Below are positions 59,154 through 64,000 of a DNA stretch of 64,000 nt, in pieces; the stretch's first letter is position 1; each line of letters opens with the position of its first letter. Both the position numbers and the translations under genes were made by a program. The stretch covers positions 64,001-128,000 of the forward strand of contig JANOQI010000024.1 of the NCBI GenBank assembly GCA_031414775.1. The letters run 5' to 3'. The notes under the pieces were generated by a model, which saw only the letters and a list, made by a program, of their open reading frames with translations, searched no databases and had not been told where the DNA came from. This DNA comes from Synechococcales cyanobacterium VAR_4_metabat_354. GTDB taxonomy: Bacteria > Cyanobacteriota > Cyanobacteriia > Cyanobacteriales > Chamaesiphonaceae.

Positions 59154-60131
59154 TTAACTTCTTTCTAGATTAAGCTGGACTGCGAGTTCAAATAACCGAT
59201 CAATTCTGAAAACTGCTGAATTCAATCCAATTTCATCTAAATACTCATCGATAGGCACAGATTTTTTTGCATAGCGACCATCTTCAGTACATCGGGTAAT
59301 TTCTTGGAGCTCTAAAAAATTTGGATCTGTACCTATCAACATTCGACCAATACCAGAGGTTCTATTAGACTGGAGAAATATTTGGGGTAGTGGCAGCCAT
59401 AAGTAACAGCTGAGAAAGTTGTGATCAGTAATGCGATGAAATCTTAAATGGCAACAAGGCTTCGTTTTTCCCCGCCCATAAAAGATGCCGTTACTAACTT
59501 TGATTTCTTTGATGCGGTGACTAGAAGACAGCATCTTTTCCCTAAGACGCAGAGTTTCTCTCTTTTCAATTAGGGGTAATTTATTTAGAAAATTCACTAG
59601 TATTTTTGGTGGTGGAGCGACTTGAGTTTCTCTTTCACTATTGGTTACAATCGAGTCAGCTTCGATAAATGGAATTGGTTCTGTGGCATTTATTTCCTGG
59701 CGATCACTGAGATGAAATCTCAAATAAAATTTTTTTGATTTTTCAAAAACTGAAAATCGAATAAACTCAAATTCTAATTTGTTATAGTGTCGATCGACGA
59801 AATTGTGTCTATGAAAATCTGGAGCGATCACTATCAATTTAATTGGCAAGTTGTAATTGATCGAGTCTTTAAATGGCTGTTCTAAAGCAAGGCTATGATA
59901 ATAGCGAGTGAGCTGATGAATAACATAACGGTCTTCACAATTTTTTAGCTCTAATACAACTAATTGATTGTTTTTAGTTTTAGCCAAAATATCGCAATAA
60001 TCACCTTTGATTGCGAATTGACGATTGAGAGGAGTTAAATCTAAATTATTCTCTAAATTATCCCAGATAAAATCTTCTAGAAATCTTTCTTCTGCAAACA
60101 TCCAGCCTTTATCAGATTTTCTCAGCACCAT
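59154..60131 (-). CDS. NucS-like PD-(D/E)xK endonuclease domain protein
   Basis: E..LEDFIW, YCDILA, VVLELKN, QLTRYY, LIVIAPDF; AT-rich. Confidence 0.75.
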   Translation of the reverse strand: MVLRKSDKGWMFAEERFLEDFIWDNLENNLDLTPLNRQFAIKGDYCDILAKTKNNQLVVLELKNCEDRYVIHQLTRYYHSLALEQPFKDSINYNLPIKLIVIAPDFHRHNFVDRHYNKLEFEFIRFSVFEKSKKFYLRFHLSDRQEINATEPIPFIEADSIVTNSERETQVAPPPKILVNFLNKLPLIEKRETLRLREKMLSSSHRIKEIKVSNGIFYGRGKTKPCCHLRFHRITDHNFLSCYLWLPLPQIFLQSNRTSGIGRMLIGTDPNFLELQEITRCTEDGRYAKKSVPIDEYLDEIGLNSAVFRIDRLFELAVQLNLERS

Positions 60132-60133
60132 CT

Positions 60134-60877
60134 CTAATCATCTGTTGATATATTATTTTCTATAAGTTCCATCTTTCTAATGATGGGATCAAAATCATCA
60201 CTAAATTTTGTTTGATGATTATAATAAGAATATTCAAGGCTTACTGTAGTAGGAGTCGGGAATTCTATATTCTGTAAATTAGCATCAGAAAAGTCAGCAC
60301 CTTCTGCATGAAAATGTGCAAAAGATGATTTTTGAAAATCAGCTCCGCGAAAATCAACATAAGAAAATTGACCAGATATATAAATTGATCTCAGATCGGC
60401 TCCAGTAAAGTTTGATGCTGTAAAGTCAGCTCCAGAAAAATTACTAAATTTTGCTTTTTCAGTAAGATCACTAAATTTTACACATATAAAATCAGAACCT
60501 CGACAAGAAGACTCTGACAATTTTATTCTTCTTAAGTCTGAATTCTTGAAATTACATTGATCGAGCCTACAACGAGATAAATTAGCTCCTTGTAAATTGC
60601 ATTCACTAAAATCAGTACCAGCTAAATCTACTTTAATTGACCGACTTGACCGACCAAAACTAACTGCTTTGAGGTTGGAACCCCGCAAAATAATGTTTTT
60701 AAGGTCAAGAAACAGTATTTCAGAATCAATAATATCTACTGTTGCCCCGCGTAAGTCAGAGCCGGAAAAATTCCGATGTCCCTCAGAATAGAGTTTAAGG
60801 AGAGCTTCAAGTGTTCTGACTGGCTTGGCTACTTGCTCGCCTGGATCAGAAATATTAGGCGGGTTTTCTGCGGTCAT
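60134..60877 (-). CDS. Pentapeptide repeat protein
   Basis: LLKLYSEGHRNF followed by (S/A)xLxx / xFxx repeats such as SDLRG, SNLKA, CNLQG, ANLSR, ADFTA, ADFQK, ANLQN. Confidence 0.85.
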   Translation of the reverse strand: MTAENPPNISDPGEQVAKPVRTLEALLKLYSEGHRNFSGSDLRGATVDIIDSEILFLDLKNIILRGSNLKAVSFGRSSRSIKVDLAGTDFSECNLQGANLSRCRLDQCNFKNSDLRRIKLSESSCRGSDFICVKFSDLTEKAKFSNFSGADFTASNFTGADLRSIYISGQFSYVDFRGADFQKSSFAHFHAEGADFSDANLQNIEFPTPTTVSLEYSYYNHQTKFSDDFDPIIRKMELIENNISTDD

Positions 60878-60984
60878 TAGCTTTGATGTGAATCAAAAAT
60901 CATAGGTAATTCATCTATATTCTAGAGTACCCAGATACGATCGATTTACTACACTTTTTAAATGATCGACGTAATCAAATAAAA

Positions 60985-61125
60985 CTAATCCCAATCATCC
61001 ACCGGTTCTTTTTCCCAATCACTCTTCGGTAAATATTGAGGCAATTTCAACTTAGGAAAACGATAAAAAGTATCACCATCATCATCCACCTCTGGCACCG
61101 CATCCAACACCCGCACCTGTCGATC
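60985..61125 (-). repeat. Direct repeat copy A: orphan 3' end (46 codons + stop) of the 61790-62137 gene
   Basis: 128/141 nt identical to 61790-61930; encodes the identical peptide DRQVRVLDAV...KEPVDDWD*; no start codon. Confidence 0.95.
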
Positions 61126-61202
61126 GAAATCATCTAAAATTGATAGTGACCGCTAAAAAGCTGAGATAATCAGGAATAGTCCCTAATGTTTGCTCGAAAT
61201 CA

Positions 61203-61547
61203 ATGGCCAAATTATCTACCGAAACTCTAGTAATGATTTTCTCTTTACTGCGCCAATTGGCAGAAGAAATAGAAGAAGCTTGTGCCATAGAATGGATATT
61301 TTTTGAGAGGTATGGAGAAACATCCAGAACGATCAGCGAATTAGAAGAATTACAAAATGCTAGAGAAAGACTCAATCAATCCTATGTTCGACTCAATACC
61401 TTACTACTGAAAATCCTGGAAGCACAGCCAACTGCTGCGAATGTTATGCTAGATTTGCTGGCTAAGGCGATCAATAGTGGGCAAGCGAATTTAGAAGCTG
61501 CCAATGCCAGTATTCAAGAGATTAGAAGAGGTTGGAATTTGTCATGA
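61203..61547 (+). CDS. Hypothetical alpha-helical protein (cargo gene 1)
   Basis: 114-aa ORF with amphipathic helices and ATG start; ATGA-coupled to the next ORF. Confidence 0.7.
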   Translation: MAKLSTETLVMIFSLLRQLAEEIEEACAIEWIFFERYGETSRTISELEELQNARERLNQSYVRLNTLLLKILEAQPTAANVMLDLLAKAINSGQANLEAANASIQEIRRGWNLS

Positions 61548-61732
61548 TCGATCAACACCCCTATCCTGATGCCGAAACCAAAAAAAATTGTCTTGATCGC
61601 CTACGAGAAAGTAATCGCCAATTAGAGCTATATAACTTGTTCTTAGATGATGCGATTGCTCAAGTGGACGCCGAACTGCGTCAACACAGACGTTCAAGAT
61701 TATTGCAGAAGGTAAAACCTACTGAATTTTGA
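61544..61732 (+). CDS. Small hypothetical coiled-coil protein (cargo gene 2)
   Basis: ATG at 61544 overlaps the upstream TGA (ATGA); 62 aa. Confidence 0.6.
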   Translation: MIDQHPYPDAETKKNCLDRLRESNRQLELYNLFLDDAIAQVDAELRQHRRSRLLQKVKPTEF

Positions 61733-61789
61733 TAGCTCTACTTGCACCAGAGGCGATCGATAGGTAAATACAATAATTGATCGAGCTAA

Positions 61790-61930
61790 TTAATCCCAAT
61801 CATCAACTGGCTCCTTTTCCCAATCACTCTTAGGTAAATATTGGGGCAACTTTAATTTAGGAAAACGATAAAAAGTATCACCGTCATCATCCACTTCTGG
61901 CACCGCATCCAACACTCGCACCTGTCGATC
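61790..61930 (-). repeat. Direct repeat copy B (current 3' end of the intact gene)
   Basis: Matches 60985-61125; homology ends at TCGATC. Confidence 0.95.
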
Positions 61931-62137
61931 AAGATATTCCTTAGCAATCTCTGCATCAACCTGCGCCGATGCCCCCAACTCAATCAGCGAAATCGTACTA
62001 TCATGCGACTGTAAAATTCGATAAAAAGCCTGATCTAACTGCTTTTGCTGACTTTGTTCGCGCAGCATTCGCGAGACATACACCGTCGCCCCACCACCCA
62101 GACCTAAAACCAACAGCAGTTGTATCAAAAATGCCAT
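61790..62137 (-). CDS. Small membrane-anchored hypothetical protein with winged-helix-like domain
   Basis: N-terminal TM helix; F..ILQ....ISLIEL...AQV....AKEYLD; EVDDDGDTFYRF; AAGGAAG RBS. Confidence 0.7.
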   Translation of the reverse strand: MAFLIQLLLVLGLGGGATVYVSRMLREQSQQKQLDQAFYRILQSHDSTISLIELGASAQVDAEIAKEYLDRQVRVLDAVPEVDDDGDTFYRFPKLKLPQYLPKSDWEKEPVDDWD

Positions 62138-62211
62138 GACGAGAACTTCCTTGCTTGCATGAAATCTGTAATTTCCTCTCTTCGATACAGAAGAGAGGAA
62201 TCGGAATCGAT

Positions 62212-63309
62212 CTACCCCGGCTTAACCAAATTCTCCAAGCCCTGAGTTACCTTAGCCGAAATCACGCTGTCATCAGCCGTCATTTTGTCCAAGACATCCT
62301 GGCCTTCTACCACATAACCAAACACTGCATAGCGGCCATCTAGCAAATTGCGGCCAGCAGGTGTTAGTTCTGGCTCAAACAAGAAGAAAAAGAACTGGGA
62401 AGAAGCTCCATCTGGCTCGGTTTCTGGTCTGGCCATTGCCAAGGTACCAAAAGAAGCAAAAGGCAAGACCGGCTCATCATTGTAGCGACCGGCATCTTCG
62501 AGGGTAATGCCATAGGTCGGTTTGGGGTCGCCTTTTGCCAAAACTTCTAAGGGGATGGCTCGGTATTTCTTAGTTTTAGGATCAATAAAACCTACTTCTT
62601 TCCCTGGCGGATCACCAACCTGCAACACATAGGAATCTTCAGCACGGGTAAAAGGCAGTTTGGTATAAAAGCCCCGCTGCACCAAGTCCACGAAATTGCC
62701 CGCTGTAACTGGCGCACTGTAGCCGTCTACTACTATTTTGACATCACCTTTGCTGGTGGTCATGGCGATTGTTGCCCGTCCTTTCAGTTGGGGCAGATTT
62801 TTGTATTCAGCTGGTACTTCATAGGGGAAGCCCTCGATCATTAATTCTTCTAGGTTACCAATTTGATCTAATACTGCTGCTTTTTTAGCTTGAATCTGTG
62901 ACCTGTCTTGGGCATCAGCAGCGGCTGTCATATCTGTGATGCTAGCGGCAATCTCACTGAGCAGGGTGGTTGCTGCCGCCTGATTCTTTTCTGGAACTGT
63001 TTTTAAAATATTGGCACTGCGGCTTTGTAATACCGAGCTAGCTTGTTTTATGTTACTACTGATTTTTTGCCAGCGCTTGCTGCGCAGCTGATTCGAGATA
63101 TCTTCTAAGCTGGTCTGCACTTTGCGGATATCGGGGCTGTCGATCGGCAAGGCATAACGCAAAATTGCCCGACCATCGGTAATCGCATTGCCCGCAGGCA
63201 ATAAACTCGCGCTTAAACTAACAGATAAAAAAGCGCAAAGACTAAGCGTCAAGACTGTCCGCAAGCCGCGCTGGAGGTAGTTAGTAATAAAAGTTTTGAT
63301 AAAACTCAT
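62212..63309 (-). CDS. Thylakoid lumen cyclophilin-type PPIase (TLP40/CYP38-like)
   Basis: Signal peptide, LPAGNAITD..AILRYALPID, LPQLKGRATI, DGYSAPVTAGNFVDLV, SSQFFFFL, LDGRYAVFGYV. Confidence 0.9.
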   Translation of the reverse strand: MSFIKTFITNYLQRGLRTVLTLSLCAFLSVSLSASLLPAGNAITDGRAILRYALPIDSPDIRKVQTSLEDISNQLRSKRWQKISSNIKQASSVLQSRSANILKTVPEKNQAAATTLLSEIAASITDMTAAADAQDRSQIQAKKAAVLDQIGNLEELMIEGFPYEVPAEYKNLPQLKGRATIAMTTSKGDVKIVVDGYSAPVTAGNFVDLVQRGFYTKLPFTRAEDSYVLQVGDPPGKEVGFIDPKTKKYRAIPLEVLAKGDPKPTYGITLEDAGRYNDEPVLPFASFGTLAMARPETEPDGASSQFFFFLFEPELTPAGRNLLDGRYAVFGYVVEGQDVLDKMTADDSVISAKVTQGLENLVKPG

Positions 63310-63456
63310 AGGATAAATGTCGCTGAAGGCTAGGCAAGAGCGGCCACTGCCAAATCTCTGCCTTCTTAATCTTGCCATAGTCCGGCTGGTTAATTGACTG
63401 AGAACTTCCCACAGCCTGATAAAATTAAATGCTGACTATATTCCCACAACAAACTC

Positions 63457-64000
63457 ATGATTTCCAGTAATGATTTTCGGCCTGGCGTTTCGATCGAGTG
63501 GAATGGTGGCGTATGGCGGGTAGTGGAATTCTTGCACGTTAAACCTGGTAAGGGAGCTGCCTTCGTTCGCACCAAGCTCAAAAATGCTCAATCGGGCAAC
63601 ACCGTCGAACACACTTTTCGGGCTGGTGAAAGCATGCCCCAGGCCAATTTAGAAAAAAGTGCCATGCAGCACACCTACAAAGAAGCCGATCAATTTGTAT
63701 TCATGGATATGGAGTCCTTTGAGGAATCCACGCTTACTGAAAAACAGATCGGCGATCGAGTGAAATATCTCAAAGAAGGGATGGAAGTCAACGTTGTCCG
63801 GTGGGGCGAGCAAATCCTAGAAGTAGAACTGCCCAACGCTGTCGTTCTCGAAATCACTCAAACCGATCCTGGGATGAAAGGCGACACTGCTACTGGTGGT
63901 AGCAAACCAGCTATTCTAGAAACTGGTGCCCAAATTATGGTGCCGCTGTTTATCACGATTGGTGAGAAAATTAAGATCGACACTCGGACAGATACCTATC
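63457..64000 (+). CDS. efp: Elongation factor P (3' end outside window)
   Basis: [10 protein letters not shown]...[21 protein letters not shown]...[21 protein letters not shown]; open to the window edge, so absent from the ORF track. Confidence 0.96.

Follow-up and report, generated by a model that had tools for sequence, protein, structure and literature searches.

An 805-bp two-gene insertion bounded by silently differing copies of its target gene end, with a joint at a HIP-type palindrome in a cyanobacterial genome

Some integrative elements restore the 3' end of the gene into which they insert (for example, e14 in icd), leaving an intact gene, the element and an orphan gene end, with silent differences between the two ends. 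HIP1-type repeats present a separate problem, and we know of no explanation of their function in three decades. A third system, insertion with long target duplication, has been described for R-M genes by Furuta, Abe and Kobayashi in 2010 (PMC2853133), with most reports from competent species and with Microcystis represented as well. In homology-facilitated illegitimate recombination, foreign DNA is held by one homologous anchor and closed at one non-homologous joint. The laboratory products are usually insertion-deletions with 3-10 bp of microhomology (PMC3240628, PMC5361080), and among the displaced native pieces described are immunity genes left as orphans and the 3' ends of rhs genes (PMC5361080). 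In Escherichia coli conjugation with a one-arm donor, 56 of 60 clones were target duplications, of 109-950 bp in the 14 sequenced, a result attributed to recircularisation of the donor and a single crossover (PMC3240628).

HIP1 has been connected with the recombination of plasmids at specific sites, with excision and with more efficient transformation (PMC4390886, PMC5861425, bioRxiv 2024.09.10.611283, PMC13756078), and its derivative TCGATCGA is the dominant octamer in Chamaesiphon minutus (PMC4390886). As far as these sources go, the results are from the laboratory or from correlation, whereas the case described here is a natural chromosomal joint at an octamer other than GCGATCGC. In the open-access literature we found no paper linking HIP1 or CGATCG to natural duplication joints.

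The duplicated gene end and its relatives

All positions refer to the window, the whole stretch of 64,000 nucleotides analysed. The genome of the window, from a cyanobacterial family to which Chamaesiphon belongs, is called G000, the other genomes compared are called G001, G003, G007, G020 and so on, and L-numbers denote loci. The target gene (61790-62137, minus strand) is intact and encodes a hypothetical, membrane-anchor-like protein of 115 aa without a Pfam family. It is conserved in the family, with matches in 38 of 39 family genomes, and a metagenome scan with the protein gave 8 loci only, all distant. Its last 46 codons and stop (copy B, 61790-61930, minus strand) recur at an offset of 805 bp as an orphan gene end (copy A, 60985-61125, minus strand). 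Two overlapping cargo genes lie between the copies on the strand opposite to the target gene, the first coding for 114 aa (61203-61547, plus strand) and the second for 62 aa (61544-61732, plus strand), with its start overlapping the stop of the first. The region upstream of the cargo (61128-61202, plus strand) is common to G007 up to the joint, and Chamaesiphon copies match its last 45-50 nt only. Downstream of the orphan are a spacer (60931-60984, minus strand), a pentapeptide-repeat gene (60134-60877, minus strand) and a gene for a NucS-like endonuclease (59154-60131, minus strand; PF01939). On the other side of the target gene lies most of a CYP38-like cyclophilin gene, cyp38, with its spacer (62138-63200, minus strand).

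An initial annotation, made from the sequence alone, had reported that the gene end is present twice, 805 bp apart, with silent differences only, and this was confirmed. Of 141 positions, 13 differ between the copies, each of them a silent third codon position (the TAG/TAA stop among them), so that the two peptides are identical. Under unselected change such an outcome would have a probability of 7e-10 to 2e-7, the range being set by the transition bias. The same annotation saw homology stop exactly at TCGATC. The two copies do part there, but only through a silent change at 61931 that is private to copy B. In G001, G007 and G003 alike, the intact allele has CTCGATCGA at this point, so that the full palindrome TCGATCGA (61120-61127, without strand) is target-gene sequence, inside the duplicate. 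Palindrome included, the duplicate is 143-146 bp long, to which a patchy extension is added.

The patchy similarity that had been noticed beyond the stop looks real. Its global alignment score of 22, in a scoring scheme of our own choice, was equalled by none of 2248 genomic post-stop stretches and by none of 200 that hold CGATCG; the local score is weaker, being reached by 2% of all controls and by 9% of those holding CGATCG. Because the global score lies above every control, the duplicate probably extends about 45-55 nt beyond the stop, to a second CGATCG (60938-60943 behind the orphan and 61754-61759 in the extension on the cargo side, 61747-61789, minus strand). Homology with G001 restarts in the spacer behind the orphan, at ATCGATCG, which contains the first of these two sites.

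A search of related genomes for an empty site, suggested at the outset, found one in the closest relative, G001 (about 91% identity over 322 kb aligned), where a single target gene is followed by the pentapeptide gene and then by the NucS-like gene. G007 (about 80-84%) has the same cargo and its joint is in the same register, although retaining TCGA only. Among the 39 family genomes, a second 3' fragment of the target gene is present in G000 and G007 only. The orphan in G007 has G007-specific bases in common with its own intact copy and has acquired 4 silent and 11 non-silent changes with a premature stop, compared with 13 and 0 in G000 (Fisher p 7e-5). Since it has decayed, orphans are not kept under selection, and this contrast supports the earlier proposal that copies A and B both derive from functional alleles, as their codons suggest. 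The joint, common to both genomes and accompanied in G007 by a decayed orphan, is likely to be old and need not have arisen in the G000 lineage, whereas the G000 orphan has probably only recently ceased to be the end of a functional gene.

The region downstream also differs in G007. Two genes of 266 and 63 aa without a Pfam family (L002:377-1500; window 59154-59204) replace the pentapeptide and NucS-like genes, and are joined, at a point where G001 reads TCGATCGA, to what is left of the NucS-like gene, its last 16 codons.

Relation to described insertions

The locus works like a known long-target-duplication insertion, with a non-restriction cargo. As in the cases described in PMC2853133, a direct repeat of more than 30 bp lies across the stop codon and leaves the target gene whole, the insert is small (805 bp with two ORFs, the bound being 20 kb) and carries no mobility gene, and a relative has the empty site. 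The cargo differs in being a two-gene pair and not an R-M system (neither protein falls in a Pfam or NCBIfam family above cut-off), and the two copies appear to be alleles of two strains. A further difference is the position of the joint on a HIP palindrome; no such motif is mentioned in the parts of the main text of PMC2853133 that concern us, although its supplements might list Microcystis joints.

The likeness to homology-facilitated illegitimate recombination, as far as PMC3240628 and PMC5361080 describe it, would lie in the single homologous anchor, the single non-homologous joint and the native piece orphaned and displaced downstream, with copies from different strains. Here, the DNA replaced is homologous to that of the donor, and the net result is therefore a duplication, unlike the laboratory insertion-deletions. 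Any microhomology at the joint would be represented by TCGATCGA on the recipient side, no orphan-free donor being present among the 39 genomes. This octamer is the most frequent in G000 (1979 copies, compared with 655 of canonical HIP1, GCGATCGC). The junction had been described as a HIP1 core: it does contain the CGATCG core and the dominant palindrome of the genome, but not HIP1 in its canonical form.

The absence of a recombinase from the element, noted initially, extends to its surroundings: none is encoded in the insert, and the genome's 11 tyrosine- and 2 serine-recombinase matches all lie on other contigs. The competence gene families ComEC and DprA are found in G000.

Proposed acquisition from a related strain

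We consider that the locus is probably the scar of a recombinase-free gene acquisition, in which donor DNA was anchored in cyp38 and rejoined at TCGATCGA in the recipient's gene. The donor, a related strain, would have supplied a stretch from cyp38 through the 115-aa gene to the two cargo genes; homologous recombination in cyp38 and a rejoining at TCGATCGA within the recipient's own gene would have brought this stretch into the chromosome. The donor gene end (copy B, likely donor-derived) would then complete the gene, and the recipient's old end (copy A, likely its former functional end) would stay behind the cargo. The first joint may have been an illegitimate join at a CGATCG core in an ancestor. 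If the donor already carried an orphan, this could have provided homology on the second side, and crossing over close to the palindrome would have replaced a decayed orphan by a fresh one. The only other cargo-bearing allele, that of G007, already has an orphan, and for this reason the right-hand joint in G000 is appreciably more likely to have been inherited than made anew. The direction of transfer, natural transformation and the joining role of CGATCG are what we infer from this arrangement. The donor state (gene and cargo without an orphan) was not found among the 39 family genomes and the donor-side CGATCG is consequently unseen. Of the initial proposal of joining at a HIP1 microhomology, the part that gains support is a modest enrichment of CGATCG at duplication ends (see below), but not the donor half of the joint.

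The proposal of foreign DNA anchored by homology fits a divergent tract that adjoins the insert and runs from the target gene about 1.3 kb into cyp38, the likely homologous anchor. Fourfold differences between G000 and G001 amount to 79/214 (0.37) in the target gene and cyp38, compared with 454/2026 (0.22) in 16 flanking genes (p 6e-6), and the informative sites that group G000 with G001 fall from 129 of 184 in the flanks to 20 of 73 in the tract. Trees of cyp38 lean weakly towards G000 as the outsider (p-AU 0.06 for the whole cyp38 stretch; 0.013 in a sub-part picked after the data had been seen and 0.40 in the remainder). Such a tract is consistent with donor DNA, its direction and its link to the insert being part of the proposed reading; it could also represent a separate recombination, or the change could lie in G001. 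Further along, 200 bp of the interval between cyp38 and efp (window 63394-63593) show 0-1 differing sites among G000, G001 and G007, in surroundings that are far more variable; this is possibly a crossover zone or a conserved control region.

Copy A has 6 differences from the intact allele of G007 and 11 from that of the nearer relative G001, a likeness left unexplained by a purely native origin. These bases would suit a chimeric orphan, as expected if trimmed DNA had closed into a transient circle containing the gene end and cargo and had entered by one crossover in the gene end, the cyp38 tract being a separate event. The precedent is the recircularised donor (PMC3240628), which likewise gave target duplications of 109-950 bp around foreign DNA with no integrase, although it was shown in E. 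coli conjugation. We nevertheless hold this route unlikely. It predicts no donor DNA upstream of the joint and by itself leaves the adjacent divergent tract unexplained. The mini-circle with an attP-like gene end that had been envisaged initially also found no support, neither an excised-circle joint nor an empty-site joint being present in the read contigs of four runs (X1-X4), which drop rare forms and so show presence only.

This locus, taken with its counterparts in G007 and G001 and with the polA case described below, gives natural before-and-after examples that bear on the function of the HIP repeat. It also adds small cassettes of another kind to the R-M genes for which insertion with long target duplication was described.

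CGATCG at repeat ends, the cargo family and the remaining alternatives

Two-gene cassettes flanked by short direct repeats are numerous in G000, and several are of toxin-antitoxin type. A first genome-wide figure (11 of 31 pairs with CGATCG, against 1.8-2.5 simulated) was abandoned. It overstated the effect because the filter had been set after the 77-row list was seen and because this locus was in the sample, as was a cluster of three pairs. When those 3 rows were removed and local controls used, CGATCG was present at 9 of 56 ends and in 28 of 448 nearby windows (p 0.008), a result that is in-sample, the filter having been set after the pairs were seen. Of the other gene-end duplications in G000, for which a genome-wide scan had been suggested, only 2 of 10 by our reading have CGATCG at the inner end, one of them a later deletion.

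A pre-specified test was made with 145 toxin-antitoxin loci of other genomes, each genome and family being represented by its best match among many more. Flanking repeats occurred at 16 of these loci and at none of 28 core loci (p 0.051, not significant). CGATCG was found at 10/32 repeat ends (7/16 pairs) compared with 28/237 nearby windows (12%; p 0.003-0.006), a 2.6-fold excess, in a sample where neither the ends within one pair nor the related genomes are independent. A simulation of BLAST end bias led us to expect about 6%, and 7 of 20 ends had CGATCG once 6 dispersed or hairpin repeat pairs were dropped. The enrichment at duplication breakpoints by which the initial annotation proposed to judge its reading thus holds against nearby windows, but not clearly against repeat interiors (8/46; p 0.12, not significant), and some ends are later deletions, homology restarting past 5 of 20 CGATCG-bearing ends. 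At ordinary indel breaks between G000 and G001, compared over 406 kb of the roughly 3.3 Mb of G001, CGATCG was not in excess (1 of 40 ends), and full octamers were not enriched at repeat ends (TCGATCGA at 2/32). We regard the CGATCG signal at the ends of cassette-flanking duplications as modest and partly confounded. Being modest and due in part to later deletions, it is a clue to the function of the repeat rather than a mechanism.

These later deletions are in keeping with another explanation, which we judge distinctly improbable: that the duplication was at first longer and unrelated to CGATCG, and that the orphan was later shortened by deletion from one CGATCG site to another; the palindrome would then mark decay and not insertion. 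It is compatible with one of the copies being foreign. An orphan at another locus of G000 (C56, below) has indeed lost 102 bp between two GGTCGATCG sites, and HIP1 was reportedly found to promote excision by Robinson in 1997. However, homology does not restart past the present joint (score 18, threshold 23) or past the polA joint (17), CGATCG remains enriched at ends where homology does not resume (7/23, p 0.014), and the register of the joint is the same in G007.

Other cassettes in G000 show a variety of arrangements. In C56 (G000:C56:52366-53329; L279), a DUF433/DUF5615 pair lies between gene-end copies with 15 silent and 2 non-silent codon changes and with empty sites in G001 and G003. It was considered as a second clean HIP joint and rejected, since the 102-bp loss, which is in frame, is a deletion inside the orphan. 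An antitoxin/PIN pair follows a ClpB-like gene (name read from sequence) at G000:C45:46405-47452 (L281), where the duplicated gene end has been deleted at CGATCG; the pair is absent at that place in G001 and G007. At G000:C62:1486-3135, two nested repeat pairs meet at one CGATCGATC point, which suggests stacked cassettes. About ten more small two-gene cassettes (in G000:C9, C10, C16, C20, C25, C26, C33 and C64), many of them toxin-antitoxin-like, have imperfect direct repeats of 50-155 bp. A dispersed repeat family of 60-100 bp also occurs near toxin-antitoxin loci in several genomes (L241, L257, L258 and G000:C16:30903).

The 114-aa family, to which the first cargo gene of the present locus belongs, is found in 30 of the 39 family genomes, often in several copies and at many sites; 5 of 29 cargo loci, that of G007 included, passed the flanking-repeat filter. 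The 114-aa protein is predicted to form a three-helix bundle (pLDDT 95.8). Its model matched no solved structure at E <= 0.001, and the fold search was uninformative. Among 12 close-group loci, the 114-aa gene is broken or truncated in 5 and the gene for its 62-aa partner has an internal stop in none. Together with the overlapping stop and start, this more frequent breakage of the first gene hints at a toxin-antitoxin pair.

A second clear cargo duplication, an independent case, is present in G020 (C13; L059:1010-2181), where the pair, with its first gene broken, has an orphan polA start (242 bp, 92%) on one side and an intact polA on the other. Homology stops at the joint CCGATCGAG, again ending at CGATCG. 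In 5 other genomes the cargo adjoins polA without an orphan at that register, as directly shown in 4. The cargo family is also found in G048 (L319), beside a decayed polA orphan that ends elsewhere, and in G011 (L073:1317-2142), where it adjoins a duplicate of 56 bp close to the end of an NB-ARC-like gene.

A wider reading, which we put forward tentatively and think doubtful as a whole, is that joints form generally at CGATCG palindromes when cyanobacteria undergo natural transformation. A single homologous arm together with one HIP site would suffice to capture a cassette, whose orphan then offers a second arm; integrase-free cassettes, including toxin-antitoxin pairs, would in this way spread between species and stack, and the 114/62-aa pair would then count as a new module, toxin-antitoxin-like in kind, that travels by this route.

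The distribution of the cargo family over many sites, and a geometry that resembles integration into gene ends, would also be expected of a mini-element, autonomous or mobilised in trans, whose attP-like gene end is used by a site-specific recombinase or an integron integrase. The genome could supply the enzyme from its recombinase matches elsewhere. We consider such an element very improbable. The locus shares with e14-like elements the intact gene, the element and the orphan end with silent differences, but has no integrase and is only 805 bp long, and the two clear cargo duplications hit unrelated targets at opposite gene ends. Viral contigs contained no relative of the cargo, and the plasmid records with a relative number only 2, at 41% identity. 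The attC motif of integron cassettes is a hairpin, RYYYAAC...GTTRRRY; by a crude test no attC-like pattern is present, and the fold is weak (-4.2 kcal/mol). An autonomous mobile element, as a candidate, is thus unsupported, no circle having been seen and no integrase lying in the insert or on its contig. G000 does hold an integrase-bearing element of 16 kb at another place (G000:C59:28865-44993), with exact 49-bp repeats on either side, which G001 lacks.

A local duplication whose orphan is selected as a 43-aa peptide from its own GTG, in the open frame at 60985-61116, is scarcely credible given that the G007 orphan is interrupted by a premature stop and differs by 12 amino-acid changes, and that 13 silent changes in about 28 silent sites amount here to divergence on the between-species scale. 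Misassembly of two co-occurring strain alleles, against which the initial annotation had warned and which the apparently metagenome-derived nature of the genome might suggest, can be dismissed within the reach of short-read contigs: the same structure is present in G007, and in run X2 two unitigs without any differing letters (59500-61521 and 61495-63000) each bridge one copy with its own flanks at even depth (18.8 and 19.7). Runs X1 and X3 are consistent with this structure, the read runs being possibly those of the source sample. Two further pieces, on which no conclusion is based, give weak hints of strains with an empty site: a contig of X7, at depth 2.4, passes over 811 bases, its short side being just 29 letters long, in a run that leaves the cargo uncovered, and one piece of X8 joins the pentapeptide gene, an A-type spacer and the gene end.
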